This document shows, one piece after another, positions 3,201 through 47,817 of a stretch of 64,000 nt of DNA (within the stretch, counting starts at the first letter, position 1; the number at the start of each line of letters is the position of its first letter). The position numbers and the translations under genes were made by a program. The notes under the pieces are model-generated. The model worked only from the letters and a program-made list of their open reading frames with translations, had not been told where the DNA came from and ran no database searches. Origin of the DNA: Escherichia coli (GTDB lineage: Bacteria > Pseudomonadota > Gammaproteobacteria > Enterobacterales > Enterobacteriaceae); the NCBI RefSeq assembly GCF_044324785.1, contig NZ_CP172127.1. The stretch is one strand, 5' to 3'.

Positions 3201-3756
3201 TGCTCTATTAGGAACACATCGTGGCGTAATGGACTTTGTTCATGATATCAAAACTCGTTTTGGTTCTTACTTTAAATACATTGAATTTTCTCCTATTCTT
3301 TCTTCTCAACTTATTTTGAATTTTGCGAATAATCCCAACGGTATAGATGCAGGGATGTTTGCTTCTCATGAAGTCGAAAATGTTTTTGGTGGGGGGTCTG
3401 TATGCTTAATTTCGCCTTTACTAGATTGCTATAAGGACTCTAATGGCACCATTAACCCTAAAATTATCGATGAGTTATTAAAAGCATCTAAATGGAAGAG
3501 AGGTGCCAGTGCTTATTATAACTTAGTCAATGGAACTCAACCGCGAGTTAATCCTGCTAAAATGCCAGCGCCATCTGTTAACCCAGTTGTTGTGAAGCAA
3601 ACGCCACAAACTACTTATGCACATCCTTTAAAGACAACTACGCAGCGTAAACTTGCTAAGTTAAAAAAAGACCCATATTTATTCTTTAATGATTCCCAAA
3701 AACCTCTTTTAAAAAGTTTACGATTGTTCTTCAAAAATACATCAAAGCTTAATTAA
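247..3756 (+). CDS. capsule region 2 (serotype-specific) large multidomain protein; candidate capsule polymerase/transferase with internal HAD-like motif
   Basis: 1169-aa ORF, ATG preceded by AAAGGAG; very AT-rich compared with kps region 1; HAD motif-I-like DLFDTLVERDF in mid-protein; sits between kpsS and the off-window region 3. Confidence 0.6.
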   Translation: MKSILYYLEPRTELNDKLFRYATLRSYLLPEIDGLRIADKSLDFKMIVSRTIYNKAKQNNLKMEGIDFIIIDEDVFEKNSYLKNINVSNELYHGNLNIKANEELKSIISACLPVDYKPDIIISYESPAPFFKEIFPSSLLLNAMFGIFSRAPFPAYGLLDPCGLYEYSYQYKYADKIRAEEISEEEKEVIKLLRRQSSRALAAYHPLKKYISSLYEKYDRLVVLACQVDNYFSYNSCTNYPSQYAMVEDVLSQVPSNIGVIVTEHGYKRQISDEQIESLNEKYSNFIYFSKKDVFTPSQFILPYVDGALSVSSSIGYQAALWQIPYFGLGKSQVDVLCSNTSLMSFVNDVEKGIKIDRDNILYVLLSKVHLSHKNDLFNGKSYLNKLKDLFNKFTSNCDEYEYFNTKKSIDEVRKDIICGNREWLLKKNFIDSKLVPEVDHLRVAMSHSKAISYDLFDTLVERDFVEPHELFNLIESRVRNELNNKNFPFYYVRRQAEIDLRRETRGEFEITLDEIYERFPRYFDLTLEQLEKIKNIEIDAEVELVHPKKEMVREFYFSQMICESVSIITDIYLSQNVIERILQKVKISGYNKLLVSAETKTRKHNGTIYPEYLKYIRDNFDINAGQALHVGDNKQADGDMAKKHGIKTYVFQKAIDNYKKSLIADILRSSINHPGISSSVINGLFANKYHAGHWFKINKESIFNADEYNYGYMAIGPLVVGFTQWLYRRVNKLGIKKLYFLSRDGWILKKTFDYFYPESSSGIKTEYLYSSRRTAMVASLRNIDDIIEVASQNFNARKLSDFLSTRFGLDVDTVKKSVLEKYNYKHDTIVSPYFEFGKLIGFLKDIHHTILSNAKNERESYIDYLRETGFENDCLNGGATVVDIGYSGSMQYYLKKILQCPCVNGFYFLTHHHSRDYFSNDHFEGFLQNLDDHKIAYRHGLNDHVFIFEAALSSPEGSLIKMEGKGQEREMIFLEAEEEIVRKNALLGTHRGVMDFVHDIKTRFGSYFKYIEFSPILSSQLILNFANNPNGIDAGMFASHEVENVFGGGSVCLISPLLDCYKDSNGTINPKIIDELLKASKWKRGASAYYNLVNGTQPRVNPAKMPAPSVNPVVVKQTPQTTYAHPLKTTTQRKLAKLKKDPYLFFNDSQKPLLKSLRLFFKNTSKLN

Positions 3757-3764
3757 TATAATGT

Positions 3765-3792
3765 GAGTCGCACTATGGTGTGACTCTTTTTT
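3765..3792 (+). terminator. putative rho-independent terminator between the two region 2 genes
   Basis: GAGTCGCAC-TATG-GTGTGACTC stem-loop followed by TTTTTT. Confidence 0.35.
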
Positions 3793-3874
3793 ATATGTCA
3801 GTGATAGTTATTAATGAAATATTTAATGCGCGAAGGTGTACGATTTTTACAATATTTAGAGACTGGTGGGTCAA

Positions 3875-4885
3875 ATGAGTATTTCTTTGAAAAATATTGA
3901 TTTTGCTAAAGGTCCTGTTGATTCCCTCCATCATGATTATTACTTATGGCGAGGGAAGAACATTGAGGATAAAAGACTTTTTCTCGTTTTCTCATCTCGG
4001 GGAGCAGGTCCTGGAGAATTTAGTTTTTTCAAAACTTTTGATGCGCTTAATGTAAATGTTTTGCATGTTACACCCTCTGATTTTTCATGGTACCAAAAAG
4101 GGTTAGTCGGTTTAGGGAGTGATTTGCCTTCTGCATTTAAAGCCCTATCTGACCGAATAGATAATTTCTGTATTTATCATAAAATAAAACAAATTATCTG
4201 TGTAGGGGCTTCCATGGGAGGATATGGTGCTTTAATTTATGGGGCTTTATCTAGTAGAAAAATAAAAACAACACTTATTCTTTTTGGCACCGAAACAATA
4301 TTAAAACTTCCTTATTCTAAAAGTTCTGAGAGTGAATTTGATATTCTCAAAAAATTTAAAGATGTAAGGTTTCTAGATTATTCTGATCTTGATGTGAATA
4401 TGATATTTGGTGAGTTTGATATTGTAGATACTTATTGTGCTTTATCGATGCGACATGATCGAAATTTTTCATTTTTTTCATGCACTAGCGCCTCACATGT
4501 TGTTCCGGAATACTTAAATAGACAAATTGGAATTGTTAATTTTTTTACAGACTTCTTATCGGGTGGAAGATCTTTTATTGGAAGAGGCCACATTGCTTCT
4601 GAGCTTTATCCTGAGGATATTTCTCCTCTTCTGTTCTCGAAACAATTTACTGAGGAATACAATAATGCCCTCCTCTGTTGCTTGAAAAAATATCCTTCAT
4701 TTGGGTTTGCATGGAATAGATTAGGCGTATATTTACACAATATAGGAGATCTGGCTGGGTCTTTAGCAGCATTAAAAAGAGCATTTTTCATCAACCCTGA
4801 TTATCCAAATACAATTGAGCATCTTAACTCGGTAAGAAATAAACTAAAAACTTTTAGTTTTTATGTATACTTGTGTGAGGAATGA
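3875..4885 (+). CDS. capsule region 2 protein, alpha/beta-hydrolase-like (GxSxG)
   Basis: ORF 3866-4885 starts at GTG; in-frame ATG at 3875 after GGTGGG; GASMGG nucleophile-elbow-like motif; low GC. Confidence 0.5.
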   Translation: MSISLKNIDFAKGPVDSLHHDYYLWRGKNIEDKRLFLVFSSRGAGPGEFSFFKTFDALNVNVLHVTPSDFSWYQKGLVGLGSDLPSAFKALSDRIDNFCIYHKIKQIICVGASMGGYGALIYGALSSRKIKTTLILFGTETILKLPYSKSSESEFDILKKFKDVRFLDYSDLDVNMIFGEFDIVDTYCALSMRHDRNFSFFSCTSASHVVPEYLNRQIGIVNFFTDFLSGGRSFIGRGHIASELYPEDISPLLFSKQFTEEYNNALLCCLKKYPSFGFAWNRLGVYLHNIGDLAGSLAALKRAFFINPDYPNTIEHLNSVRNKLKTFSFYVYLCEE

Positions 4886-4934
4886 ATAGCAATATATCTC
4901 AATATCTAAGAGCTGGTTTTTATATCGTTCATAG

Positions 4935-6143
4935 TTATAATTTTTTTACTTTTATTTGTTTTCTTACTCTATCCCCATAATAAACCCCATTAACCTGCGT
5001 CTTCACCAATAAATACCCCCGAAACTTCTTAAACAGTTTCATATCCGGTTTAAAATCGGCCTGCCAGAACTGGTGCAAATGCCCTTGATACGTCAAGCCT
5101 TTGATGTCGTACAGGGCATTGCCCATCACTTTGAGTGGTTTGTTGTGAATCAGCGCAGATATCCCCGCCGTACTGTTAATTGTCACCACCGCTTTTGCGT
5201 GGCGTAACAATTCCGGCATCGGGAGATCGTGCACATAAATGACTCGTTCCCCTAAGCCATATTCCTTACTCAACCGCTTAATTAATGGTCGATAGAGTCT
5301 GTGACCACGATCCATTGGATGGTGCTTGATCACCAAATAACTTTCTTTCGGTGCTTTACGTGAAAATGAGTACATGACTTCATTAATATAGTCACGCACA
5401 TCGTTATAATTGCTGTGGTTACGAATCTGGCTATCGTTATACACCTGCAAAACGGCAAGATAATAACGCTGATCCAGCTCATTCATTAACCTCGGCAATA
5501 CCTTACGCTGTGTTACCTTGTAAAGTTGCTTGCGCCAGTATGCACGAACCCAGCAACGTGCTTCATACCAGGGGGAAAACGATTTATGGTGGCGGTAGCG
5601 AGGGAACTCATGGCGGTAATGCCAGCCCATCAGGTAATACCACATCGCATGACCTATACGTTTCATCGTTGAAGGTTTTAAGTTCTCAACGTGCGGCGCA
5701 GGCATATCTGGTAACTTACGATAAAAATCCGGATCGCGCGGTAGCGATGAATATGCGTTTACTCCGCCTTCTTCAACGGTTATAAATTGCGGGCGTAAAT
5801 ATCCTTCTTCAAATGCCAGAAAGCGGAGCCCTTTCGACTTTGCCCAGCGTTTTGCTTCTTTATGCAATGGGCGACAGTCACCAAAACAGAGGATGGTATC
5901 AAAGTCATATTGCCGGTGGAGATCCCGTAACCATCCGGGGAACTCTTTCGGCGTTTGGTAGTAGGCCAGGTATTGTCGATGGCGGCAGTAAAAACGATCC
6001 CCACCGTTGAATACAACATTCACAGCGTTACGTCCTAATGACTCTAACCATTCGGCGACGTCATTGAAAAAAGGTCCCATCGGCCCCTGCAATAGCAGAT
6101 ATTTTTTACCGGATAATAAAACGGTTAGTGCATTACCTTGCAT
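4935..6143 (-). CDS. kpsS: capsule export/poly-Kdo linker transferase KpsS
   Basis: 402-aa protein recognised as KpsS (MQGNALTVLLSGKKYLLLQGPMGPFF...); last gene of region 1 order F-E-D-U-C-S. Confidence 0.85.
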   Translation of the reverse strand: MQGNALTVLLSGKKYLLLQGPMGPFFNDVAEWLESLGRNAVNVVFNGGDRFYCRHRQYLAYYQTPKEFPGWLRDLHRQYDFDTILCFGDCRPLHKEAKRWAKSKGLRFLAFEEGYLRPQFITVEEGGVNAYSSLPRDPDFYRKLPDMPAPHVENLKPSTMKRIGHAMWYYLMGWHYRHEFPRYRHHKSFSPWYEARCWVRAYWRKQLYKVTQRKVLPRLMNELDQRYYLAVLQVYNDSQIRNHSNYNDVRDYINEVMYSFSRKAPKESYLVIKHHPMDRGHRLYRPLIKRLSKEYGLGERVIYVHDLPMPELLRHAKAVVTINSTAGISALIHNKPLKVMGNALYDIKGLTYQGHLHQFWQADFKPDMKLFKKFRGYLLVKTQVNGVYYGDRVRKQIKVKKL

Positions 6144-6177
6144 AAATAATTTGCGTAATAGTCAACTATGAAATTGT

Positions 6178-8205
6178 TTAGCCAAATCTGACCTTGCAGA
6201 ACATAATTAATTTGCGGTAATAGCGTATTACCCGTCCCGCTTTTTTTCGGGTAATAAACATCGGCTTACGCGGCGTCTGGATTAAATATTCCGCAGCTTC
6301 CTCAACCGTAATAGGCTGTAGCCGTGTTGGGTGAATATATGTTGGGTAAACAATCAACGCCTGATAGATCAAGTCTGCTATCGTTAATTTTTGCTCGCGG
6401 CGCGGGCAATGATGTTCATCAACGGTTAAACCCCAACCGGCATAGAAGGGCAGGCCGTAACAATGAACTTGCTTGCCATGTAATAACGCTTCAAACCCGG
6501 ACAATGATGTCATGGTGTGCACTTCATCTGCGCGCTGAATGCATTGAATAATATCGGCGCCCAGTGCCTGATAATCAGCGAGTTCAGCAGTCAGTTCTGC
6601 CGGAATATCGCCCTTGCGATTCCCCACCAGTACATCCGGGTGCGGTTTATAAACAATGTAGGCGTGCGGATTGCGCTCGCGTACTGTGCGTAATAACTCA
6701 AGGTTGCTCTTAATCGAGACAGTGCCTGTTTTAATGGAGGCATCGTCCTCTACCTGACCCGGCACCAGGATAACTTTTTTATCTTTGGCTTCGGCTGGTA
6801 GAGAGAAATCGGCTCCCAGGTTGTACTTACTCAGTTTGCTTTCAACCAGTCGCTGGCGTAATTTTTCAGCTCGCATCTTCTGCGCCAGCGTTAGCTGGCT
6901 ATGATTCAGCAGCACTTCCAGATCGCTGGGGCGTGTGGCGTCATAGTAAATACCGCGTTTATCCAGCACCAGCGATAGCGGCGGCAGCAGGTCAGAGCCA
7001 AGTCCGGATGAACGCAGAAAACCATCTTCCATTCGCCATAACGGCAGTGATTTTCGCTGCGCTTCGGCTCGCCATTGCTGTTCTCCCTTTACACCCCATA
7101 CCACGCAGGCGCTCGCCGCAGTACAGCGACGTGAAAAACTCAGCCGGTTTGTTGCCGTTTGCAAGAAAGGTTTCAGGATCGCTGACTTCCACAGCGTTAA
7201 GCCTGGCGCCCATAAATAACCATCACGCTGTTGCAGATGTCGACGTTGTAATTGCAGCCATTGCAGCACGGTAAATAGATCGCTTACTTCTCCCGTTTGC
7301 GGATCGATATAGCGACAGTAACGCAGGTATGCAGCGGCAAAAAGTTCCTCCAGCGTGGCAGAACCGCGTCGGGCAGATAACAAAGCGGACTGTGGATGAC
7401 GATCGTCGGTTAAACCCCAACCTGCATACCAAGGCTGGCCGAAACATGTTACTGGTTTTCCTGCCAGCAAGGCTTCAAAGCCGTACTGGGAGGTCACGAC
7501 GTAAACCTGGGAAACGTGTCGCAATAGCGACTGCGGGCTGACATTCTCGGCAATCAAACGTACTCGTTGCGTGGCACGCAGATCAGCGAAATAACCTGTT
7601 TTCTTTCCTTCCAGTACATCTGGGTGCACCTTCACCCAAATTTCGGCTTGAGGATTTTCCGCCATCGCGGCTTCCAGCATGGCAGCAAACTCATGCGGGC
7701 CAGCATTGCCATACGTCACTGACATATCATTAAATGTCTGATCGACAACCAGAACGATGTCTGCACGTTCTGACTCATCAGCCACAAACGCAGGTGCCAG
7801 GTTATATTTCGACAAATCTCCGGTCACGATGGTGTGCATCGCTTCTCTGGCCTGGCTTATCAGAGCTGTATTTCCGGCTTTATCCTGTACCAGTTTCTCC
7901 AGTGCTGAAGGCTTGCTGGCATCGTAGTAAATGCCACAATCATCCACCACCAGAGAAAGCGGCGGCTCGCCATTGACGCCAAGATCCAGCGAACGCACAA
8001 ATCCATCTTCCAGACGAATGACGGGTTTTCCCGCTGCTTTGGCGATGGCGACTGGTTTCGCCGCGCTGGGACGATGTCCCCACACGGCGATAGCATCAAC
8101 TTCTTGCGGAACAGGGCGCAGCAGAGAAAGTTTCTGGCACGGTTGCGCCAGAAATTTCTCCAGATGCGGAATACGCCAGATGCCAGGCGAGTAAATGCCA
8201 ATCAT
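6178..8205 (-). CDS. kpsC: capsule poly-Kdo linker transferase KpsC
   Basis: 675-aa protein with duplicated KpsC-type halves; 4-bp overlap with kpsU stop (translational coupling). Confidence 0.85.
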
Positions 8206-14166: not shown

Positions 14167-15009
14167 TCAGGCTGAGAGCACAGAAGGAAAGTACCTGGCT
14201 ATTATATCGTTAATTCTGTCAATCAGTTCCAGCCTTTTGAAAGTGATGTGTGCAGATCCCTTCTTAAAGTATTTAATGATGAACATCTCGTCTTCATAGC
14301 GCTCTTTACCCTGAACGGACTGGATGTGACCATCCAGACGAATAGTGATGTTTTCCCGGTTGTCGGGGATCGGTTTGCCGCTGAACAGATGTAGCATTCT
14401 TTCCAGGTCGACGAGTCGGTCAGTCTGTTGCCCGGTGATAAGATGAAACCCCCACCGGTCCCACCTCACCAGGTTGTTGACGATAATTTTACTGCCAAAT
14501 TTGCAGGGGCAATTGGTTTTGTAATTCCAGCTCAGTCCCCTGAAGACGTTGATCACCCCTCGCTCAAACACCTCATCCTTATTCTGGTGTAGTTGTTCAA
14601 ATGTGATCAGAATGTTCGCTTCACTGATTTCCGGAAAATTATCGTACTCCAGTGACCGGTACCATGTATCACGGGCCTGTGCATCCATTAAGGAAAGCAT
14701 CCCTGAACGTTGCATCAGGTCACGCCAGATTTCGCGATCGAGATTGCGTGTGATGGCTTTCATTGCGGTTTCCGGTTTCTCCATCAGCCAGCAGCCGCAG
14801 CGAAAATCCTGTTTCATGGCCCAGCCCGGGGCGGCTTTACCGCCAATACTTTCTGTCATTGCTGATATTTCAGCCAGTTGCCGGATAAGTGTGTCGATTT
14901 GCAGCAGTGTACTCTTTCGTACAGCCAGAATGTGGCGGATATTGGTTGAGCAGATAACGTCCGTATGCCCGGTGACCACTTCCGGACGGGAGATTGTGAT
15001 GTCTGACAT
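14167..15009 (-). CDS. conserved island hypothetical protein (paralog at 45253-46122)
   Basis: 280-aa ORF with a near-identical paralog; sits beyond the CbtA toxin gene. Confidence 0.6.
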   Translation of the reverse strand: MSDITISRPEVVTGHTDVICSTNIRHILAVRKSTLLQIDTLIRQLAEISAMTESIGGKAAPGWAMKQDFRCGCWLMEKPETAMKAITRNLDREIWRDLMQRSGMLSLMDAQARDTWYRSLEYDNFPEISEANILITFEQLHQNKDEVFERGVINVFRGLSWNYKTNCPCKFGSKIIVNNLVRWDRWGFHLITGQQTDRLVDLERMLHLFSGKPIPDNRENITIRLDGHIQSVQGKERYEDEMFIIKYFKKGSAHITFKRLELIDRINDIIARYFPSVLSA

Positions 15010-15093
15010 TATCGGTTTCCCTTTTGGTTTATAAACGAAAACGCCAGCCCTGTTCAGGCTGACGTCAGTGGAATGAAGTATGGTGAGTGATAT

Positions 15094-15516
15094 TTACCGG
15101 TTCTGGTGCAGAAGCTGCAGGTGACGAAGAGTACGGACATCCTCCCGGGCCTGTTCGATACAGGGCAACAGTGCTGCCGAATCCGTTTTATCCTCATCGT
15201 TGTCAAAGATAATTCCCGATTCGCAGTCGATATTGTCCTGCAGCCACGCAATGAGGATATCCAGCGCTGTTTCAGTGGTTAATGGCATCACGCTCTGTAT
15301 CACTGTATTGTCTTCCGGCAACTGATGAGGGCTGGCAGAAGTCGCCGGTGTTTCGGTAGCGTCACGTTTATCCACCACGCGGAGTGAATAACCGTTTTCA
15401 GCGACCTTGTTAATCAGTTCAATGAGATTAACACCATCGACGTCAACGACAATTCGCCCCATGTTCAGCGCCTGCACGTTAACGCTGTCGGCTTCCAGCG
15501 TCAGGGCCAGTTTCAT
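15094..15516 (-). CDS. hypothetical protein in yeeW-like position downstream of cbtA
   Basis: 140-aa ORF overlapping cbtA stop by 4 bp; N- and C-terminal parts conserved in copy 2 but the middle is replaced. Confidence 0.45.
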   Translation of the reverse strand: MKLALTLEADSVNVQALNMGRIVVDVDGVNLIELINKVAENGYSLRVVDKRDATETPATSASPHQLPEDNTVIQSVMPLTTETALDILIAWLQDNIDCESGIIFDNDEDKTDSAALLPCIEQAREDVRTLRHLQLLHQNR

Positions 15517-15890
15517 TGTTTCGCCTCCGGATGCTTACCCAGAGTAATGTTATTTACTGTTCGGTAATTGTCGCGGGTCATCAGGCCGGTCGCCCTGCGA
15601 GCCCGGAGGATATCGATGCTGTTTATTAACTGAGAGCGGGTACAGGCGCTGAATCCCGGCTGGTCGGTACGCACCAGCGCGTATTTTTCCACGAGAAAGT
15701 TCACCGCATCACACAGTGAAATGCCTGCCTCAATATGCTGCTCAATCACACGTTCATCAGCGAACGGTGTGTCATTCAGTGTGAGGCCGTAATGCTGGTC
15801 CAGCAGTCGGGTGAGCAGTGTATGCCAGATGGTGACGGGAGACGGGCAGCACGATGCCTCCCGTACGTGTGTGTCAGGTAATGTTTTCAT
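15513..15890 (-). CDS. cbtA: CbtA/YkfI/YpjF-family type IV toxin
   Basis: MKTLPDTHV...LTLNDTPFADERVIEQHIEAGISLCDAVNFLVEKYALVRTDQPGF recognised as CbtA family; track ORF trimmed to MKTLP. Confidence 0.8.
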   Translation of the reverse strand: MKTLPDTHVREASCCPSPVTIWHTLLTRLLDQHYGLTLNDTPFADERVIEQHIEAGISLCDAVNFLVEKYALVRTDQPGFSACTRSQLINSIDILRARRATGLMTRDNYRTVNNITLGKHPEAKQ

Positions 15891-15936
15891 CTTAAGTTCT
15901 CTGTAACTGGTAGTGCTAAAGGTGAGATATTCGGGG

Positions 15937-16311
15937 TTATGAGGTGGTTGCGGGTGCCAGTGTCGGATAAACAGCCATATAAACGTAACCACAGGAGCCG
16001 AGGGTGTCGGCTTCACAGGCCAGCCCCTTCGCATACAGTGTCACGGTATGCTGATGGCGGGGATTCAGTTCACCGCTGGTGAGCATGAGCTCCAGTTGTT
16101 TCATCAGCAGCGGAAAGGCCTGGTCCAGGTGGTACGCATCTGCATCGCTGAACAGGCCTCTGATACCGGCGCGGTCGGCAAGGTAATGCAACCGGTTACC
16201 CTCCTGCACCAGACGTGCCCCGAAACAGGGCGTCACGGTGCAGGGCAGCCCCCACCAGGGGCGGTCGTGATTGTCGTCGGGAAGTGTTGTCCCGGGGAGT
16301 GTGTCTGACAC
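15937..16311 (-). CDS. cbeA: CbeA/YafW/YfjZ-family antitoxin
   Basis: 124 aa MSDTLPGTTLPDDNHDRPWWGLPCTVTPCFGARLVQEGNRLHYLADRAGI...; immediately upstream of toxin. Confidence 0.8.
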   Translation of the reverse strand: MSDTLPGTTLPDDNHDRPWWGLPCTVTPCFGARLVQEGNRLHYLADRAGIRGLFSDADAYHLDQAFPLLMKQLELMLTSGELNPRHQHTVTLYAKGLACEADTLGSCGYVYMAVYPTLAPATTS

Positions 16312-16386
16312 GATAAAATCCTCACAGAAAATCGGTTAAGAATGGTCCGGTAGTGGCGATAATTCTGCTCATCAGAATGCCCTGAC

Positions 16387-16608
16387 TCAGTTCAGGGTGA
16401 CACTCATCAGGCGGACATACGGGCCAAAACTGTCCTTACGGCGTTCTGCAAATACAGCCAGCACACCGGGAATATCCTGCACTTCACGACCGGTATACGC
16501 CTCAGCACTGCCGTGCCAGCGGTATTTACCGGTACAGAACGGAAAAAGACGGGATGTCGGATGTTGTTGGTGAATACGCATGGCTTCACCACGGGTGATG
16601 ATTTTCAT
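16387..16608 (-). CDS. YeeT/YkfH/YpjJ-family small protein
   Basis: 73 aa; conserved position between radC-like and antitoxin genes. Confidence 0.65.
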   Translation of the reverse strand: MKIITRGEAMRIHQQHPTSRLFPFCTGKYRWHGSAEAYTGREVQDIPGVLAVFAERRKDSFGPYVRLMSVTLN

Positions 16609-16676
16609 GGTGTGATACCTCTGAAGACAGAAGATAAAAGTGAAAACAGGTGTGATGTGGTGGTGACGGTGACGGG

Positions 16677-17153
16677 TTAAAGCAGACCGTGTTCCGCAAA
16701 GGAGAAAACCTGGCTGCCACCGACTATCAGATGGTCCGGTACCCGGATATCCACCAGGCCCAGTGCCTGTACCAGACGTTCCGTGATAAGGCGGTCTGCC
16801 TTGCTGGGTGTGACTTCACCGGACGGGTGATTGTGTGCCAGCACCACGGCAGCGGCATTGTGGTACAGGGCGCGTTTAATCACTTCCCGGGGATGGACTT
16901 CCGTGCGGTTGATGGTGCCGGTGAAGAGGGTTTCACCGGCAATCAGCTGATTCTGGTTGTTCAGATACAGCACCCGGAATTCTTCACGCTCCAGTCCCGC
17001 CATGTTCAGAATCAGCCATTCCCGTGCCGCATGCGTGGAGGTGAAGGCCACGCCGGGTTCATGAAGATGGCGGTCCAGGGCTTTCAGGGCCCGCTGAATG
17101 AGGCTGCGCTCTCTGGTTGTCATTTCTCCGGGCAGAAAGGAAATCTGTTGCAT
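16677..17153 (-). CDS. RadC-like JAB-domain protein (YeeS/YkfG/YfjY family)
   Basis: 158 aa; JAMM-like HNHPSG motif (VLAHNHPSGEVTPSKAD). Confidence 0.8.
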   Translation of the reverse strand: MQQISFLPGEMTTRERSLIQRALKALDRHLHEPGVAFTSTHAAREWLILNMAGLEREEFRVLYLNNQNQLIAGETLFTGTINRTEVHPREVIKRALYHNAAAVVLAHNHPSGEVTPSKADRLITERLVQALGLVDIRVPDHLIVGGSQVFSFAEHGLL

Positions 17154-17168
17154 TGTTCCGGCCCCCTT

Positions 17169-17654
17169 TCAGTCAATGATGCGCATAATGGCGCTGCATT
17201 CCGGATGCTGCAGGGCGTAATCCCGCAGACGGTAATAATGAACCGTCATGGCATAACACTCCGTACGGCAGGCGTGATGACTGTACGTCATCAGACAGGC
17301 AGCAATGCCGGCGGCTTCCGGGCTCATTTCAGCGCGGTTACCGTTCATGGCATTGAACAGTACCCATGTTTCGTCATCATCATCATCCGGTTCGGGGGCC
17401 ATAAATGCCCCGCCGTTATTCAGTGTGTACAGATTCCAGATACCACCGCAGTAGTCTTCACACAGACGGTCCATCCAGCCGAAGACACGGGGCTCCAGGG
17501 TCACCCACTGTGGAATGAGGCCAAAGTGCTGTGGCCAGAAGCTGATGCACTGTTCATCAGGGACGGGAGTGGCAACCAGTTGAGACTGGTTATTCCCTGA
17601 TGCAGTAGTTACGGAAACAGAAGGTGTGGTGGAATTATGTGAAACGGTTGTCAT
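17169..17654 (-). CDS. antirestriction protein (KlcA/ArdB-like, YfjX/YafX family)
   Basis: Recognised family; start trimmed to MTTVSHN to match copy 2 length (161 aa). Confidence 0.7.
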   Translation of the reverse strand: MTTVSHNSTTPSVSVTTASGNNQSQLVATPVPDEQCISFWPQHFGLIPQWVTLEPRVFGWMDRLCEDYCGGIWNLYTLNNGGAFMAPEPDDDDDETWVLFNAMNGNRAEMSPEAAGIAACLMTYSHHACRTECYAMTVHYYRLRDYALQHPECSAIMRIID

Positions 17655-17744
17655 GATATTATTCCTTATAAAAAGCAAATGAATGAAGAAGGCTCGGGGG
17701 CAGGGACAGACGTGAGTCAGGACGGCGCTTTCAGGTAAACGGTA

Positions 17745-18563
17745 TCAGCGCATGTTCTCCAGCAGCGTTTCCGCCATCACCCATAATGCGCGATTGAGCT
17801 TAATATCGGTGTCGATGCTGTGAATGGCCCGGGTATGGATACGTTTTCCTCTGGCACTGCGGCCGGAAATTCCGCCTTTCAGCATATTCTCCTGGATGGT
17901 CTGATATGCGCTCCACAGGTCCTTACCGTAATCCTCCCTGCGTCGTGGCGTAAGAATGTCAGCGGTGGTGACGGGCTGATGTTCGTCACCATAACGGTAA
18001 GTCAGGGCCGCCTGTGCCAGCGCCTGGCGTGCCGGTGGCGGCAGGACCAGCGACTGCATGGCATCACGCTTCTCCTCTATCCGGTCAAACACGCCCACCA
18101 CCTCGTAAGCCCCTTCGATAACTTTCTCCACTACATTTCCCCGGTGTGGAACACGCACTTCCCCCAGAGACTGGCCACAGACGCACCCGTTCTGGCAGAC
18201 GAACCTGAAGTAACCCGGCAGCATCTGGTAGCTGGAGGTACCGTCATGAGAGTTGAGCAGAATAATTTCAGGGACATGTTCTCCGTTTATCTCTCCGGCC
18301 CGCCGCAGACGCAGCATGTGTTTGGTATACCCCCGGCGGCCCGGGTCACGTACGCGGGTCTGGCAGGCGAAGAACGGCTGAAAGCCTTCCCGCTGCAGAT
18401 TTTCCAGGACGGTAATGGTGGGAATGTACGCATACCGTTCACTGCGGGAGGTGTGCCGGTCTTCCCCAAAAATACTGGGTACATGGCGTATCAGTTCTTC
18501 ATGTGTCAGCGGACGGTCACGGCGTATCTGGTTTACATGACCAAAACGACTTGCTAATCGCAT
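17745..18563 (-). CDS. DUF932-like protein (YfjQ/YafZ family)
   Basis: 272 aa, MRLASRFGHVNQIRRDRPLT...; conserved CP4-type island gene. Confidence 0.65.
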   Translation of the reverse strand: MRLASRFGHVNQIRRDRPLTHEELIRHVPSIFGEDRHTSRSERYAYIPTITVLENLQREGFQPFFACQTRVRDPGRRGYTKHMLRLRRAGEINGEHVPEIILLNSHDGTSSYQMLPGYFRFVCQNGCVCGQSLGEVRVPHRGNVVEKVIEGAYEVVGVFDRIEEKRDAMQSLVLPPPARQALAQAALTYRYGDEHQPVTTADILTPRRREDYGKDLWSAYQTIQENMLKGGISGRSARGKRIHTRAIHSIDTDIKLNRALWVMAETLLENMR

Positions 18564-18653
18564 GATTTGCTCCTTATGAATGAGTTAGCGGTATAAATGA
18601 AAAAGCCGCGTCTTCTGGAGAAGACGCGGCCTGATGGATCAAGTGAATGACGT

Positions 18654-18887
18654 TTATTGCCTGAGAATTCCCTCACTGGCGAGATACGGATTTAGCTGTT
18701 TTCCGGCATCAGGTTCAAAATTCCAGCACCGCCAGCGTAGCTGCCCTTCAGCATTGCGAATAACCAACCGGGAATATGTTCCCTGGTCATCTTCAGTAAA
18801 CACATTGCGGTAAGCTGTTTTGACGGCAACAGCCTGTTCGCGTGAGAAAGGGCCTTCGGGCAATAAACGTGATGTACAACCCGGCAT
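18654..18887 (-). CDS. DUF905-like small protein (YkfF family)
   Basis: ORF trimmed to internal Met to match 77-aa paralog at 50098-50331. Confidence 0.55.
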
Positions 18888-18957
18888 ATCTGTTGCTCCC
18901 TGAAAGTAAAAAGCCCCGGTCATGATGACCGGGGCCTGAAGGAGAGTGACCTGATTA

Positions 18958-21804
18958 TCAGAAAGTCACATTCAGCGTGGCCTGACCGTTATAACCTTCA
19001 GCGCTGCTGCCGCTGACACTGTGGGCATAACCGGCCTGAACGCCCAGGGTGATATTTTCCCGGACACGGGCTTCCAGTCCGGCCTGCAGGTCCAGTGACG
19101 TGCCATTCCGGGACGGTGAGAACGTCATGTTACTGCCGGCGGCGGCTGTACCCATGCTCATGTCACCCCGGGAGCTGAAAGTGCGGATAACAGAAGGCTG
19201 TACCCACCAGTTCACCGGCAGTTCACTCACACGGTGTTTTGTACTGTCGCGCAGAGTGTCACGGGATGAGGTGCCTTCGCCAAAGGTCATATCGTTGTGG
19301 CTGCCCAGACGGAAGCCGGCACGCACATGTTGTGTACTGCCATGCCCGAACTTCACATAACCGGCGTTATCCTGGCCGTCATCCAGGGAGAGCCCCTGCC
19401 AGGTGTACTGCAGTTGTGGCTCCAGCATCAGGTTGTCAGTGATACTGAAGGGCAGACCGGTTTCCAGTGAGCCCAGCCAGCCCCAGCCCCGGGCGCGGAA
19501 GTCGTTATTGTCCGATGACGCTTTCATGCTGTGGCGGGTTCCCTGTGCCACAATGTCAGCCCACAGGCCGGAGGACGTGTGTGTCAGATTCAGGTATCCG
19601 CCCAGGCTGCCGGCATCATCCCGGACCGTGCCGGCGCGGGAACCGTCATCATCCTTAACATCAACGGAAGAATGGCCTGCAGCACCATATACCCCTGTCG
19701 TCAGAGACATACCGGCAACCTCTGTTCTGAGCAGGTCACCCTCCAGATGGACGAAGCCATAGCTGCCGCTGCTTTCCGGCGTGGCTCCACGGGCAATACC
19801 GCCGTTGTTATCGTGACCGAGATGACCGCCCTGAATGCTGAGACGGACGCTGTTATTTTCACCGCTTACACCGGTCTGATGGCTGCGGGAGCCTGCCAGA
19901 ATCCGGTCATAGTCCATTGCCTGTGTCAGCATGGAGGCATACAGGGGGACTTCAGCACGATAAGCATTTTCACTGCGCAGGTACCAGTCTTCATCGCTGT
20001 CACGGTTCAGGGTGTAGTTAAAGGCTCCGGCCTGAAGCGGGCGACTCAGGGCAAACGCACCTTCTTCTGTGGTGGCACCATTCTGTGCATCCACAACCCG
20101 GATACCCTGTCCGGAGGTTGCCACCCCGAGGTTACTGTTTCCGACATTTGTAAACGCAAGCCAGGTTTTGCCGGTTGCCTGACCACCATTAATCACCAGC
20201 TGGTCAGAGGTATTGCTGCCATCAAGGCGAACACGCATATTGATGGTGCCACCCTGACCGGTGAGGTTACTGGTTGTCAGTTTATGGAACGTTACCGGGG
20301 CGTTGCCTTTTGCAACAGCACGGCTCAGTACGGCATCCGGTGTTGTCTGATTGTCAAAGTAAATCTCCCCTGCGTTAACAATATCGCCGGTACTGACCAC
20401 ATCACCATTCAGTACCATGCTGGCGCCTTTACTGAGCTGTGTTCTGCCACTCAGACTTCCCCCGGCAGCCAGCATCAGTGTTCCACGATGTCCGACAGTG
20501 GTGTTGCTGGCCTGTCCCCCGGCATTAACCGTAAAGCTGCCGCCATTTTCCAGCAGCAGGTCGCTGGCCTGACCGGATATGCCATCAATACTGAACTTAC
20601 CGCTGGCATTGGTCCCCTCAACAGTGGCACCACTGTCTGCTATCAGGGCACCACCGGATGTCATGGTGACATCTGTTGCCTTACCACCGGCAGACACTGC
20701 CAGGGTACCGCCGTCATCCACCAGTGTTTTCTGCGCTGAATGGCCCTCCAGTACATCCAGGCGACCGCCGGACTCCAGAACAACGCCGTCAGCCTTACCG
20801 TTTTCCACTGTGAAATTGCCCAGACGGTTGCTGCCGGTGACGGTTGCCGCCGTACTGGTGACCAGTGCGCCGCCCTGCGTCAGGGTGACATTCGTGGCTG
20901 TACCACCGGCGTTCACCTGCAGTTTGCCTTTCTGGTTAACGGTGGTGAAATCCGCCAGACCACCTTCCTTGATAATCTGCCAGCCGTCACTGTTAACAAC
21001 AGTGCCAGACGCCGTACCGCCGTTGTGCACATACTGGTACCCCCCATTCAGCGTGGTATCCAGTGCGTGACCATGTACAGTCTGGTCGCCGCCGGCATAA
21101 ACCACAGTGGTATTTGCCGTTCCTTCAGCAGCCACAATCTGACGACCATTTTTATTGATGGTGGTGCGTACGGCATCTCCGTAGACGGTCTGCCCGGTAT
21201 CACCATTTTCCGCATCCGGTCCCCCTTCCGCGCCGGTATTCACAACCGTGTCGGTTGCCACTGCGCCGGATTTGACGGCCTGCCAGCCCTTCTCATTAAT
21301 GACGGTACCCGTTGCAATCCCGCCTTCATGTACCCACTGCTCACCGCCGTTCAGCGTGGTGTTCACTGCCTGCCCCTGAAGGCTCTGTCCGCCTCCGGCA
21401 CTGATAACCGTGTCTGAAACGCTTCCTCCGGCATTCACTCTCTGAAGACCACCACCGGTGACAGTAGTGTTGTTGGCGATACCGCCATTTTGTATCCATT
21501 GCCCGCCGGTATTGACCTCGTTATCCGGCCCATACTCCAGCCCGGTACTGATGGTCATTCCGTTGGTCGTACCGAAGACAATCTGGTTGTCATGATTTTC
21601 CAGTGCTCCGCCGCTCACGGTTTCTCCCGCCTGTACAACCGTGTCAGCAGCCAGTGCCGGGACTGATGTGACAGCAGCAAGAGACAGCGCAACCGCCACA
21701 CCGGCGCGTTTTCCCCGTGAGCGGGCCAGTTCGGAGGCCACCACCAGGGTGCCCGTAATGTGATTCCATACCAGCCTGTAGCTGGTGTTCAGATGTCGTT
21801 TCAT
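18958..21804 (-). CDS. flu: antigen 43 (Ag43) self-associating autotransporter adhesin
   Basis: [31 protein letters not shown] signal region, repetitive Gly/Thr/Asn-rich passenger, C-terminal beta-barrel ending ...TLNVTF; start trimmed to MKRHL (948 aa). Confidence 0.85.
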
Positions 21805-22017
21805 CAGCTTTTCCTTACAGAGGGTGAATAAAAAAGCCGGTACCCACAAATGTGGATACCGGCAGGTACAAAACAGCATGGTCAGATAAAGTGTTTTTTC
21901 CCGGACATAAATGCTTCCCCTCTCTCATCCGCCAGAGAAGTATCAGTCCGTTGTGTGCAATTCCGTTCTGCATGATGAAGAGATTCAGCTGCCTTTTCGC
22001 AGGCCATTAACCACTAT

Positions 22018-22060
22018 AAATGATCGATTGTGACGATCGATACCTGTTTTATCGATCGTT
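22018..22060 (-). promoter_or_regulatory. agn43 phase-variation switch: three GATC Dam sites (OxyR operator region)
   Basis: GATC at about 22022, 22035, 22054 in TGATCGATTGTGACGATCGATACCTGTTTTATCGATCG, about 220 bp upstream of the flu start. Confidence 0.6.
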
Positions 22061-22176
22061 TTATTCTATTAATAACAAGGCAGCCACGCAAGAGAAACAG
22101 GAGGAGTATGAGGGGTTTGTGTCATGTTTTCAGTTGGTTAACGCAATGTAATCAGGCATTTCCTCTGGCAGAGTGT

Positions 22177-23112
22177 TCAGAAGAAAATCCAGTTCCATAC
22201 CGCGCGGGCAACAGAGACCACGGTGTCACGGACGGCACGCAGAACCGTACGAGCCACAGAGGCAACACAGACGCTCTCCGCCGTGTCAAATATCCGGTCC
22301 ACCGCACCGGTAAACTGTTCACGGGCCTGCCCCCGGACAGATTCCGTGCACAGCTCGTCCTGCAGGCGGGTCATCAGGGGACTGGCGGCATGGTCGGGAA
22401 GTGCTGTCATGAGCGCACTGACCAGCGTATCCAGTTCCCAGCCGGTGCGGGCCGATACGGCCACAACCGGATGTACGGGCCGGAACAGCCGGAATACCGC
22501 ATCTGTTTTCTCACGAATGTTCTGTTCCTGTGCGGGAGAAGGCTGAATACCTGCCATATCCCATTCATGGCAGGGCTCCGTTTTGTCGGCCTGCGTCACC
22601 ACAAACAGCACCTGCTGATGTCCCCGGTGCAGGATGTGTCGCCAGAAATAGTCATCCACAGACAGGGCCCGGTCATCGGCTTTAATCAGCCACAGTACCA
22701 GGTCAAGTTCAGGCAGAATGTCACGGTACAGGGCTTCATACTCTGCATCCCTGTCCCGGCTCTCGCCCACCCCGGGCAGGTCAGTGATAACCATGCTGTG
22801 ACCATGGCCACTCAGACGGAAGCGCTGCACTTCCCGGGTGCCGGCGTGAACATCACTGACCGGGGTGACCTCCCCCTGAAACAGTGCATTACAGAGTGAG
22901 GATTTACCGGCCCCGCTTTTTCCCATAATGCCAATCACGGGTTCGTGGCTGGTGAGTTTGCGCAGATGTTCCAGGATGTGACGGGAAAGTGAGTAAGGCA
23001 GGGAGGAGAGCGGTTTTTCAATTGCCTCAATGGCATCAGACGGATTCATACATGTATTCCCGGTGAAAAAAGACAAAACCCCGCGCACCGGAAAGGTGGC
23101 GGGGGGATTCAC
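22177..23112 (-). CDS. YeeP/YfjP/YkfA-family GTPase
   Basis: P-loop GIMGKSGAGKSSL; true start may be the internal Met at about 23049. Confidence 0.75.
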   Translation of the reverse strand: MNPPATFPVRGVLSFFTGNTCMNPSDAIEAIEKPLSSLPYSLSRHILEHLRKLTSHEPVIGIMGKSGAGKSSLCNALFQGEVTPVSDVHAGTREVQRFRLSGHGHSMVITDLPGVGESRDRDAEYEALYRDILPELDLVLWLIKADDRALSVDDYFWRHILHRGHQQVLFVVTQADKTEPCHEWDMAGIQPSPAQEQNIREKTDAVFRLFRPVHPVVAVSARTGWELDTLVSALMTALPDHAASPLMTRLQDELCTESVRGQAREQFTGAVDRIFDTAESVCVASVARTVLRAVRDTVVSVARAVWNWIFF

Positions 23113-42868: not shown

Positions 42869-44131
42869 CTATTTTAATGGATTGTTAATCTTTGCATATT
42901 CAAACGGGCTGATACATTGTTCTCTGTTCGCACCCAGAAAATCTGCCCACCACTGTAGCATCAGTCGACGTTCTTCCAGATGTTCTGCTTTATGGATATA
43001 TGCAGCACGTACACCATTACGCTCCTGATGGCTCATCTGACGTTCCACAGCATCGCGGGACCACAAACCTGATTCAATCAATGCACTGCACGCCATCGCC
43101 CGGAATCCATGACCACAGACTTCCTGGGTTGTGTCATATCCCATCACCCTCAGGGCTTTATTTACAGTATTTTCACTGATCGGTTTACGCGGGTCATGTG
43201 CTCCCGTAAAGATCAGACCATTTTCACCAGCCCATGTCTGTAGTTCTGTCAGTATGGCTACAGCCTGTTTGCTGAGTGGCACAAGATGTGGTGTTCGCAT
43301 CTTGGAGCCCCGGTGTGAGTATTTTACGCCTGGCAGAGGTTCGCGTTCGGCTGGAATAGTCCACATGGCATTGTCAATATCAATTTCAGACCAGCGGGAA
43401 TATCTGAGTTCACTGGAACGAATAAAAACCAGTAAATTCAGCATAACTGCCAGTCGGGTGACAGGCTGACCTTTATAACCGTCAATACGCGACAGAAGTT
43501 CAGGCAGGCGTGAAAGATCCAGAGCAGGGCGATGCTGGCGTTTTACCGTGGTCAATGCACCAGCCATATCCAGAGCCGGGTTATATCTGATGATGCCAGA
43601 CTGTACGGCATAACGCATTACAGCAGATATTCTTTGCTGCAGACGACTGGCGATTTCATAAATTTGTTTTGCTTCTGCAGCACGAACAGGGATAAGCAGG
43701 TCCGGGGTATTGAGTGTTGTGATATCCCGGTTGCCGATAAAGGGGAAAACGTGTGTCTCGAGGCTTTTGATTACTTTATCGCTGTGTGATTGTGCCCATT
43801 GTTTATTACTGGCATGCCAGCGTCGTGCAATATGTTCAAAAGAGAGTTGTAAATCAGGGACTACTTTTTTAGCTCTTTTTTGTTCGCAAGGGTCAATCCC
43901 CTCTGAAATCAGTTTTCGGGCCTCATCCCGTTTTGTACGAGCTTCGGAGAGAGAAACTTCTGGATATACACCAAGTGCCAGAGTCTTCTCCTTACCCAGA
44001 ATACGATAACGGAGACGCCAGTAACGGGAACCATTAGGATGAACCAGCAGGAACATGCCAGCCCCGTCAGTGAGTTTATAAGCCTTGTCAGTGTGCTTTG
44101 CAGCCCGGATTTTTGCGTCAGTCAGTGCCAT
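42869..44131 (-). CDS. P4-type (IntA-like) tyrosine integrase
   Basis: 420 aa; MALTDAKIRAAKHTDKAYKLTDGAGMFLLVHPNGSRYWRLRYR N-terminus typical of P4-family integrases; next to tRNA-Phe 3'-end repeat. Confidence 0.85.
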   Translation of the reverse strand: MALTDAKIRAAKHTDKAYKLTDGAGMFLLVHPNGSRYWRLRYRILGKEKTLALGVYPEVSLSEARTKRDEARKLISEGIDPCEQKRAKKVVPDLQLSFEHIARRWHASNKQWAQSHSDKVIKSLETHVFPFIGNRDITTLNTPDLLIPVRAAEAKQIYEIASRLQQRISAVMRYAVQSGIIRYNPALDMAGALTTVKRQHRPALDLSRLPELLSRIDGYKGQPVTRLAVMLNLLVFIRSSELRYSRWSEIDIDNAMWTIPAEREPLPGVKYSHRGSKMRTPHLVPLSKQAVAILTELQTWAGENGLIFTGAHDPRKPISENTVNKALRVMGYDTTQEVCGHGFRAMACSALIESGLWSRDAVERQMSHQERNGVRAAYIHKAEHLEERRLMLQWWADFLGANREQCISPFEYAKINNPLK

Positions 44132-44328: not shown

Positions 44329-44347
44329 TGGTGCCCGGACTCGGAAT
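44329..44347. repeat. 19-bp direct repeat of tRNA-Phe 3' end (att site)
   Basis: TGGTGCCCGGACTCGGAAT is the reverse complement of the tRNA-Phe 3' terminus; sequence diverges from the tRNA beyond 19 nt. Confidence 0.6.
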
Positions 44348-44594
44348 GAAACTGGTTGTATAACAAGTTGTTTTATATTGATTGTTTTGTGTTTGTTATT
44401 TTTGAGGCCACCAATGAGGCCCCCATGTGCAATTCGAATTCTTTTGACGCTATAATCCCTCTTTCTTGTGGTTTGTTGTAATCATTTTGTCTGGTTCGAT
44501 ATGCTGAATCGCGGAATCGAAGTGACAACAAAATACAGAGATTTATAAAATACCTGGCTACCTGTGTTAGGGAGCGTTAACGCACAGATTTTGT

Positions 44595-45252: not shown

Positions 45253-46122
45253 TTATGCCTTGCTGCTTTTGTTCACTGTGCTTGCCAGGGCTTCCGGGTA
45301 GTGTCTGGCAATAATATCATTAAGCCTGTCAACCAGCTCTGGTTTCCTGAACGTGATGTGCGCGGAGCCCTTCTTAAAGTATCTGATGCTGAACATCTCA
45401 TCTTCATAGTCCTCTTTACCCTGAACAGACTGGATGTGATCATCCAGATGAATGGTGATGTTTTCCCGGTTGTCGGGGATCGGTTTGCCGCTGAACAGGT
45501 GTAGCATTCTTTCCAGATCGGCAAGTCGATCTGCCTGTGGGCCGTTGTTCAGATGAAACCCCCACCGGTCCCACCTCACCAGGTTGTTGACGATAATTTT
45601 ACTGCCAAATTTGCAGGGGCAATTGGTTTTGTAATTCCAGCTCAGTCCCCTGAAGACGTTGATCACCCCTCGCTCAAACACCTCATCCTTATTCTGGTGC
45701 AGTTGTTCAAATGTGCTCAGAATGTTCGCTTCGCAGATTTCCGGAAAATTATCGTACTCCAGTGACCGGTACCATGTATCACGGGCTTGTGCATCCATTA
45801 ATGACAGCATCCCTGAACGTTGCATCAGGTCACGCCAGAGTTCGCGATCGAGATTCCGGGTGATGGCTTTCATTGCGGTTTCCGGTTTCTCCATCAGCCA
45901 GCAACCGCAGCGAAAATCCTGTTTCATGGCCCAGTCCCGGGCGGTTTTACCTCCAATACTTTCTGTCATTGCTGATATTTCAGCCAGTTGCCGGATAAGT
46001 GTGTCGATTTGCAGCAGTGTACTCTTTCGTACAGCCAGAATGTGGCGGATACTGGTTGAGCAAATAACGTCCGTATGCCCGGTGACCACTTCCGGACGGG
46101 AGGCTGTGATATCTGACATCAT
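45253..46122 (-). CDS. conserved island hypothetical protein (paralog of 14167-15009)
   Basis: 289 aa, near-identical to copy 1 over most of its length. Confidence 0.6.
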   Translation of the reverse strand: MMSDITASRPEVVTGHTDVICSTSIRHILAVRKSTLLQIDTLIRQLAEISAMTESIGGKTARDWAMKQDFRCGCWLMEKPETAMKAITRNLDRELWRDLMQRSGMLSLMDAQARDTWYRSLEYDNFPEICEANILSTFEQLHQNKDEVFERGVINVFRGLSWNYKTNCPCKFGSKIIVNNLVRWDRWGFHLNNGPQADRLADLERMLHLFSGKPIPDNRENITIHLDDHIQSVQGKEDYEDEMFSIRYFKKGSAHITFRKPELVDRLNDIIARHYPEALASTVNKSSKA

Positions 46123-46412
46123 CGTTTTTCCTTTTGGTTTATAAACGAAAACGCCAGCTGTATTCAGGCTGGCGTCAGGGGAATGAAGTATGGTGAGTGA
46201 TATTCACCGGTTCTGGTGCAGAAGCTGCAGTTGGCGCAGGGTACGGATATCTTCCCTGGCCTGTTCAATGCAGGGCAGCAGTGCTGTCGAATCCGTTTTA
46301 TCCTCATCGTTGTCAAAGATAATTTCCGATTCGCAGTCAATATTGTCCTGCAGCCACGCAATCAGAATATCCAGCGCTGTTTCCGTGGTTAATGATTTCA
46401 TGTTGTTCCAGG

Positions 46413-46901
46413 TTACCAGTTGAAAGTGGGTAAACCCGGCAGGCATTCAGCGCTGGCATCCAGATGAATGAGACTGACGCCATAACGTCGGGTAAGTGTG
46501 ACAACCAGACGGCGGAACGTTTTTGACAGGCCCAGGCGCTTAAGCCGCAAAACCGGGTATGACCACGCATCGGTACGTAACAGATATCCGCTACCTGTGA
46601 AATGAATCCATTCTGATTCGCCGGTGTCATTCGTCTGATGTGACAGCGAGTACAACCAGGCATTGTCCGTTTCCGTGATATGTGCGGTACTGCAGCGTAT
46701 GCCGGTAAGGGCCGCAGATGGTGGCGTGCGCTCTGCTGATGCCCGGTCAGATTCATCAACAACACGAAGGGAGTAACCGTTATCGCAGACCACGTTAATC
46801 AGTTCAGCGAGAGTAACACCATCGACGTCAACGACAATGCGCCCCATGTTCAGTGCCTGCACGTTAATGCTGTCGGCTTCCAGCGTCAGGGCCAGTTTCA
46901 T
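46413..46901 (-). CDS. hypothetical protein in yeeW-like position (variant of 15094-15516)
   Basis: 162 aa; N-terminal 50 aa match copy 1, then a divergent inserted segment; copy-1 C-terminus appears in a separate frame (46204-46446). Confidence 0.4.
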   Translation of the reverse strand: MKLALTLEADSINVQALNMGRIVVDVDGVTLAELINVVCDNGYSLRVVDESDRASAERTPPSAALTGIRCSTAHITETDNAWLYSLSHQTNDTGESEWIHFTGSGYLLRTDAWSYPVLRLKRLGLSKTFRRLVVTLTRRYGVSLIHLDASAECLPGLPTFNW

Positions 46902-47275
46902 TGTTTCGCCCCCGGATGTTTACCCAGGGTAATGTTATTTACCGTTCTGTAATTTTCGCGGGCCATCAGGCCGGTTGCCCGGCGTGCCCGGAGGATATCA
47001 ATACTGTTTATTAACTGAGAACGGGTACAGGCGCTGAATCCCGGCTGGTCGGTACGTACCAGCGCGTATTTTTCAACGAGAAAGTTCACCGCATCACACA
47101 GTGAAATGCCCGCTTCAATATGCTGCTCAATCACACGTTCATCAGCGAACGGTGTGTCATTCAGCGCGAGGCCGTAGTGCTGGTCCAGTAACCGGGTGAG
47201 CAGTGTCTGCCAGATGGTGACGGGAGACGGGCAGCACGATGCCTCCCGTACATGCGTGTCGGGTAATGTTTTCAT
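46898..47275 (-). CDS. cbtA: CbtA-family toxin, copy 2
   Basis: MKTLPDTHVREASCCPSPVTIWQTLL...; track ORF trimmed. Confidence 0.8.
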   Translation of the reverse strand: MKTLPDTHVREASCCPSPVTIWQTLLTRLLDQHYGLALNDTPFADERVIEQHIEAGISLCDAVNFLVEKYALVRTDQPGFSACTRSQLINSIDILRARRATGLMARENYRTVNNITLGKHPGAKQ

Positions 47276-47364
47276 AATGAAGATTTTCCTGATATGCAGA
47301 GATAAAAAATGGGACAGTGGCGTGGTGAAAGCACCAGGCCGGAGCAGAAGGTTATTCTGGAGAG

Positions 47365-47733: not shown

Positions 47734-47817
47734 GATAAAATCCTCACAGAAAATTGGTTAAGAATGGTCCGGTGGTGGCGATAATTCTGCTCTTCTGAAT
47801 GCCCTTCCAGACTCAGT

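Follow-up and report, generated by a model that had tools for sequence, protein, structure and literature searches.

The agn43 (flu) locus described here raises the question of whether an Ag43 gene of 948 codons, preceded by three GATC sites, is an intact and phase-variable adhesin gene of a known kind or one that has been altered in its protein, its switch, or both. We addressed this question in the window, that is, the whole 64,000-nucleotide stretch of Escherichia coli DNA that was analyzed. The reading that we consider very probable is of an intact agn43 locus encoding a UTI89-like Ag43 of 948 aa, most likely under classical Dam/OxyR phase variation. The integrity of the gene, its family, its module composition, its near-identity to a characterized allele, the GATC geometry, and the conservation of promoter and leader are directly established, and the feature is one that is already known, a common described allele class with a described regulatory architecture.

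The agn43 coding sequence lies on the minus strand at 18958..21804, where it was delimited by its open reading frame and translation, by NCBIfam and Pfam matches, and by the PGAP annotation of TUM9803, and it codes for an Ag43/Cah-family self-associating autotransporter. It comprises 2847 nt, that is, 948 codons plus a stop, and its translation has no internal stops. In TUM9803, where the agn43 locus is 99.9% identical, PGAP calls the same 2847-nt coding sequence with the same start. The product belongs to the Ag43/Cah family of type Va self-associating autotransporters: it matches the NCBIfam profile NF033177 (auto_Ag43, Ag43/Cah family autotransporter adhesin) with 1984.1 bits against a cutoff of 1200 and over the full length (residues 1-948 on profile positions 1-948 of 948), and its Pfam matches, all above gathering, are ESPR (PF13018, residues 6-52), five copies of AIDA (PF16168), AC_1 (PF18883, residues 497-599), and Autotransporter (PF03797, residues 663-924). 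Three parts follow one another on the minus strand: (i) an extended signal peptide (residues 1-52, 21649..21804), placed by Pfam ESPR and the K-12 alignment and ending in VPALA before AD; (ii) the passenger (alpha43) with its autochaperone (residues 53-613, 19966..21648), which the match to the structure 7KO9 and segment identities resolve into an SL1-type stem followed by EJ2-BL2-AC; and (iii) the translocator (beta43; residues 614-948, 18961..19965), which contains the Pfam beta-domain and ends in NVTF. Crystallized Ag43 constructs likewise begin at residue 53 (PMC8993888).

The flu locus of K-12 is the reference for Dam/OxyR phase variation, and the arrangement of its GATC sites is reproduced upstream of the gene in the window. 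The 373-nt intergenic region holds exactly three GATCs, found by sequence scan: GATC-I at 22054..22057, at the predicted transcription start and also identified by the K-12 alignment, GATC-II 19 bp after it at 22035..22038, and GATC-III a further 13 bp on at 22022..22025. The three sites of K-12 flu, at 2318, 2337, and 2350 in the coordinates of the sampled K-12 locus, are likewise 19 and 13 bp apart, and the same spacing occurs in all of the sampled Ag43 upstream regions (9/9). The next 3.4 kb downstream of the cluster and the 1.4 kb upstream of it contain no further GATC, and GATC is absent from every sampled agn43 coding sequence, whereas the whole window contains 201 GATCs (~1 per 318 bp). 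Because the flanking 3.4 kb and 1.4 kb are free of GATC, the three-site cluster is no chance product of local GATC density.

Immediately upstream of the cluster is a predicted sigma-70 promoter (22063..22091, minus strand) that was assigned by homology only, with the -35 element TTGCGT at 22086-22091, a 17-nt spacer, and the -10 element TAGAAT at 22063-22068; a generic sigma-70 scan did not report this TTGCGT-17-TAGAAT promoter, which has 8/12 matches. The upstream regions were compared without gaps and anchored on the -10 element, since a gap introduced by MAFFT had put the GATCs out of register. In this ungapped alignment, the window and K-12 agree fully over the -10 element with the AAAACGATC that comes after it, and likewise over AATAGAATAAAACGATC, with all three GATCs in register; the -10 element is conserved across the sampled alleles.

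Transcripts starting at the predicted site would pass through a 5' leader RNA of the IS102/IsrC family (Rfam RF00124; 21823..22059, minus strand, from the predicted transcription start to the terminator). The match to the IS102 model covers positions 1-206, the full model, at 64.8 bits against a gathering threshold of 46 (E value of 2.5e-10), and the annotated isrC of K-12 starts at the G of GATC-I. A terminator scan placed an intrinsic terminator-like hairpin of 12 bp (8 of them G-C), followed by a T-run, at 21826..21863 on the minus strand, ~20 nt before the start codon. The hairpin sequence is nearly invariant among the window, TUM9803, and K-12 and corresponds to the stem that closes the IS102 model. 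By these matches, we class the leader as being of the IS102/IsrC type with a terminal terminator stem. At least 80% of a 3.2-kb query covering the locus is present in 3289 of 5426 complete E. coli genomes; the leader type of the window occurs in 3458 of these 5426 genomes and that of K-12 in 1789. The leader type of the window precedes 948-aa as well as 1039-aa alleles.

The classical agn43 Dam/OxyR mechanism and its essential switch elements were reportedly described by Haagmans and van der Woude in 2000, and by Waldron and by Wallecha in 2002. Applied to the window, the mechanism would work as follows. In the OFF state, OxyR lying over three unmethylated GATCs downstream of the promoter would block transcription; in the ON state, GATCs methylated by Dam would exclude OxyR; and each state would be inherited until replication lets the competitor in. 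Transcripts that are made would traverse the IS102/IsrC-type leader, where the terminator hairpin could stop them before the coding sequence. This switch has been described (PMC3764049), and from the conserved architecture, we infer OxyR binding across the GATCs of the window. The preliminary description had reported an intact phase switch with three GATCs in the arrangement expected for Dam/OxyR control. The arrangement holds, since 22054, 22035, and 22022 reproduce the 19/13 geometry of K-12 flu and of 9/9 sampled alleles, in a position that directly follows the conserved -10 element and falls within the IS102/IsrC leader. Intactness holds for the architecture, which is complete in GATCs, promoter, and leader; the working of the switch is likely on that architecture, and the match to the OxyR consensus in the register of K-12 is weak (9/20).

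OxyR matches were scored over 20 positions against the consensus ATAGnTnnnAnCTAT-N7-ATAGnTnnnAnCTAT. K-12 scores 14/20 in its own register. The best register in the window (-12, 10 bp upstream of the K-12 register) reaches 13/20, and two others, including +7, reach 12/20 each; scores of at least 13/20 occur at ~2.7e-4 of background positions, and several registers of the window are nearly equal, which leaves the consensus scoring ambiguous. Between and after the GATCs, the window differs from K-12 at about half of the positions. Two differences are private to its switch, namely, the GATC-II/III spacer GTCACAATC, with C for T, and the base next to GATC-III, which is A in place of the G of most alleles; in the other sampled alleles, the spacer reads GTT(A/T/G)CTATC or GTTTATATC.

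It is conceivable, though unlikely, that these rare substitutions touch OxyR contacts and weaken or shift OxyR binding, leaving the gene biased toward ON or switching at an altered frequency. The exact 121-nt switch sequence is indeed rare, with only 13 of ~3465 matching records at 99% identity or more, and the T-to-C change hits a conserved T of the half-site ATnGnTnnnAnCnAT that is kept in other alleles; the score in the K-12 register is low as well. That low score, however, is common to the whole leader type (~3460 genomes) and extends well beyond the rare variant, and the window retains all three GATCs at unchanged spacing, together with an intact dyad ACGATCGATA...TATCGATCGT. The spacer between GATC-II and GATC-III is, moreover, naturally variable (GTTACTATC, GTTTCTATC, GTTGCTATC, GTTTATATC, and GTTGCCATC), which suggests tolerance. 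If the rare variant did have an effect, the allele of the window should show a measurably different ON/OFF bias from that of common alleles. A related proposal, to which we give similarly little credence, is that the variant alters OxyR affinity or register and that the GATC-free coding sequence could have been selected to insulate the switch, in the sense that the three sites could be shielded from SeqA or Dam activity at neighboring sites; the lack of GATC in agn43 coding sequences may, alternatively, reflect only a general GATC poverty of mobile elements.

Returning to the classical switch as the preferred reading, we infer OxyR binding to the variant of the window, actual switching, and an aggregation phenotype from the similarity of the locus to characterized ones. 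The commoner leader type cannot simply be read with the OxyR half-sites defined in K-12, and OxyR binding has arguably been characterized on the less common leader variant, that of K-12. A literature search for Cah phase variation found no papers, and the sampled cah alleles share both the leader type and the 19/13 GATC spacing of the window.

The second part of the question concerns the length of the protein. The preliminary description had noted that the 948-codon gene is shorter than the commonly described form of roughly 1039 aa, and this is true of the uninterrupted coding sequence, which encodes 91 residues fewer than K-12 Flu. Such a length is not unusual, as it is that of the known subfamily II and of the NCBI profile. 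In BLASTP, the alignment to K-12 Flu (1039 aa) is nearly gap-free in residues 1-348 and from ~515 to the end, and all gaps lie between; all 91 missing residues thus fall in ~349-515, the elbow, bottom, and autochaperone part. Identity to K-12 by segment is 85% in the signal peptide, 87% in the stem (SL), 66% in the elbow (EJ), 41% in the bottom (BL), 65% in the autochaperone (AC), and 94% in the translocator; other 948-aa alleles, including cah, share 92-100% identity with the window in EJ, BL, and AC. Because these three segments diverge from K-12 and match the 948-aa alleles, we attribute the length to module exchange and to neither a deletion nor a start artifact.

The 91-residue difference and the many gaps at residues 349-515 could also be taken to mean that the 1039-aa form has degenerated here by internal deletion, leaving a gene for a nonfunctional or crippled adhesin, but we regard this as highly improbable. 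The passenger region has been replaced, as the divergence from K-12 and the match to other 948-aa alleles indicate; the NCBI Ag43 profile has the same length, 948 positions; a passenger ~97% identical has been crystallized as a complete L-shaped beta-helix with its autochaperone and mediates aggregation (PMC8993888); and subfamily II passengers of ~430 aa are a described and prevalent group (PMC6668479, PMC10058404). On the module comparison, the idea of an internally deleted derivative is already refuted.

That the true start is instead the ATG at 21879, which opens the longest open reading frame (18958..21879, 973 aa) and would make the length comparison wrong, has next to no probability, since its 25 additional codons cross the conserved leader terminator hairpin and T-run, this ATG has no counterpart in K-12, both the ESPR signal peptide (Pfam, from residue 6) and the BLASTP alignment to K-12 Flu, which runs from residue 1 of both N-termini, begin at the MKRHLNT start, an AAGGA Shine-Dalgarno sequence sits at 21812-21816, 8 nt before the ATG at 21804, and PGAP picks the 21804 start. 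The 973-aa frame was rejected as a real gene on these grounds, and with a start conserved with K-12 residue 1, the short length is real and not the result of a miscalled start.

With module exchange as the source of the length, the allele can be placed among the described Ag43 classes. Subfamily I (C1, C3) has passengers of ~500 aa with EJ1-BL1, and subfamily II (C2/C4/C5/C6) has passengers of ~430 aa with EJ2-BL2 (PMC6668479, PMC10058404); the SL1 and SL2 stems are ~75% identical to each other (PMC6668479). The stem of the window is 87-92% identical to those of 1039-aa C1-type alleles and 72-76% identical to those of O157 and other cah alleles. We therefore assign the protein, by its segments, to subfamily II with an SL1-EJ2-BL2 passenger. 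Its class by the same comparison is C4 of the four-class scheme, and the six-class scheme (PMC10058404) leaves C4 (SL1b) or C6 (SL1a).

The best sequence match in the PDB is 7KO9, at 1127 bits over residues 52-613, ungapped and ~97% identical over 562 residues, and it is followed in rank by 7KOH, 4KH3, and 7KOB. The first two are alpha43-UTI89 and alpha43-EDL933, respectively (Table 1 of PMC8993888), and Ag43-UTI89 has been assigned to class C4 (Vo et al. 2022, PMC8993888). Like the protein in the window, Ag43 of the uropathogenic strain UTI89 (UTI89_C1139, 7KO9) is of the 948-aa type, and the ~97% identity of the passengers leaves ~18 substitutions in the window (counted by eye), for example S64N, A67T, E69T, G267D, Q358W, and Y482R. 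Judged by this resemblance, the gene is essentially the UTI89 allele.

Two other characterized proteins differ more. Cah/Ag43-EDL933 (Z1211, class C2, 7KOH) shares the length of 948 aa and the EJ2-BL2-AC module with the window, but it has an SL2-type stem, the seat of the self-association interface, which is 72-76% identical to that of the window. Identity with the EDL933 type was considered and rejected, as only 9 of the 19 EDL933 interface residues fit with either offset, and the stem is likewise only 72-76% identical to those of the O157 cah alleles. Flu of K-12 MG1655 (b2000, 1039 aa, class C1) has the same family, island module, signal peptide, SL1-type stem, and translocator as the window, and its gene has the same promoter -10 element, three GATCs at 19/13, and IsrC/IS102 leader terminator. 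In contrast, the protein of the window has another EJ-BL-AC type, is 91 residues shorter, and lacks the context of the K-12 D551/P552 processing site, and at the locus, the leader is ~35 nt longer than in K-12, with a DUF905 gene in place of yeeR downstream. Neither the 1039-aa K-12 protein of the textbooks nor the K-12 switch sequence is the majority form: the NCBI profile is 948 positions long, and the leader type of the window is about twice as frequent as that of K-12 among complete E. coli genomes.

The resemblance to UTI89 also bears on autoaggregation. Following the extended signal peptide, the protein would be exported by Sec, after which the beta-barrel would translocate the L-shaped beta-helical passenger to the surface, where passengers of neighboring cells would self-associate head-to-tail. 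Ag43-UTI89 dimerizes via a single interface with 13 hydrogen bonds, which explains why its sedimentation is slower and its aggregates are smaller than those of Ag43a or Ag43-EDL933, and its aggregation is abolished by mutation at T32, N60, D79, T80, T98, N100, and N137; Ag43-EDL933 has a double interface and aggregates fast. R161 and D133 have been proposed to prevent a double interface in Ag43-UTI89 (PMC8993888). All of the interface residues G13, G30, T32, N60, D79, T80, T98, N100, and N137 are identical in the window (9/9), as are the steric residues R161 and D133, so that 11/11 published UTI89 residues are kept (mature numbering, offset 52). With this conservation and ~97% passenger identity to Ag43-UTI89, the comparison predicts that the protein would autoaggregate through a single interface, more weakly and more slowly than Ag43a, Ag43-EDL933, and, by implication, other strong aggregators. 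In this allele type, the single interface would make aggregation slower and looser. The suggestion that the short allele may differ in autoaggregation is thus probably correct, by way of the published behavior of a ~97% identical protein whose interface residues it keeps. A fitting label for the locus is a UTI89-like Ag43 (subfamily II, SL1-EJ2-BL2) preceded by an IsrC-type leader and, probably, a Dam/OxyR switch. Such a label, whose value lies mainly in annotation, predicts phase-variable and relatively weak autoaggregation for the strain.

The surroundings of the gene are those of a genomic island. Immediately upstream of agn43 is a YeeP-like GTPase gene (22177..23049, minus strand; Pfam MMR_HSR1 and PGAP in TUM9803), and the gene order runs YeeP-like GTPase, agn43, DUF905, DUF932, antirestriction protein, RadC/JAB, DUF987, CbeA, CbtA, DUF957, and DUF4942. 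We identify this as a CP4-44-like genomic-island module on which agn43 is carried. Positions 8-44350 of the window are collinear with TUM9803 at 99.9%. No second copy of agn43 was found in the window by tblastn, no tRNA genes were found there by ARAGORN, and dam and oxyR are not within it. The agn43 module is bordered on one side by a kps capsule cluster and on the other by a larger island, whose end is marked by an integrase gene (42869-44131) and by 19 nt left over from the 3' end of a tRNA.

The coding sequence of agn43 (minus strand, 18958-21804) contains no GATC at all, although 6.6 +/- 2.0 sites would be expected from synonymous-codon shuffles, none of which reached zero (0/2000). The K-12 flu gene likewise has none against 8.7 expected, and the coding sequence was free of GATC in all nine of the nine agn43 alleles sampled. 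The depletion extends beyond the gene, with a single GATC in the 7.3 kb at 14740-22021 of the window versus approximately 23 expected at the window's average density. Mobile elements of ST131 have been reported to carry too few GATC sites (PMC4659465); therefore, the scarcity around agn43 may be a general mobile-element phenomenon. Whatever its origin, it keeps the three-GATC switch apart from other Dam sites. A second CP4-44-like module (DUF4942 ... DUF932/DUF905; 45253-~55000), which is 90-92% identical to 14195-18867, holds the longest GATC-free stretch of the window (45846-49970) and lacks agn43, a tblastn search across the window having returned a single copy of that gene.

Within the switch itself (22022-22060), a terminator-style scan identified a near-perfect inverted repeat of 11 pairs, ACGATCGATA ... 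TATCGATCGT, that holds GATC-I and GATC-II. A second such repeat, ATCGATTGTGACGATCGAT, holds GATC-II and GATC-III. The switch dyad is likewise present in K-12, with one mismatch. This dyad may be the conserved protein-recognition feature that linear scoring against the OxyR consensus overlooks. One leader/switch type is found upstream of both the 1039-aa alleles (L005 and L006) and the 948-aa alleles (the window, L003, L004, L007, and L009); therefore, the regulatory region, the stem subdomain, and the EJ-BL-AC module assort independently of one another. The K-12-type leader is in the minority, occurring in 1,789 genomes versus 3,458 with the leader type of the window.

At 3330-3512 of L010, a locus sampled from NZ_OZ501679.1 and lying outside the window, three GATC sites with 18/13 spacing come after a promoter that resembles the one of agn43 (TTGCGT-17-TAGAAT). 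This region is directly preceded by a YeeP-like GTPase gene and lies upstream of an operon encoding dynamin-family, RdcB-family, and patatin-like phospholipase proteins. Its OxyR-consensus match (15/20) was the highest among all sequences scored, and the 231-nt stretch was present in 1,983 of the 5,426 complete E. coli genomes, ST131 among them. The region is a candidate second Dam/OxyR phase switch; a full-text literature search combining dynamin, OxyR, GATC, and phase variation found no paper. In E. coli O157:H7 SS17 (L008, locus 3700-6920), the cah copy is cut off after codon 780 and adjoins a 5'-truncated dynamin-family gene, which suggests deletion or recombination between Ag43-carrying and dynamin-carrying island modules.

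Collinearity between the window and strain TUM9803 stops within a tRNA gene, of which the window retains only 19 nt, ATTCCGAGTCCGGGCACCA (44331-44349, minus strand), corresponding to the 3' end of tRNA-Phe. ARAGORN found no tRNA in the window; the TUM9803 annotation at the same place is a 78-nt "tRNA-Ser" with a tRNA-Phe-like 3' half. Lying next to a tyrosine integrase (42869-44131), the remnant is probably that of an att site, and a kps group-2 capsule cluster at ~4.9-12.9 kb fits a pheV-type island.
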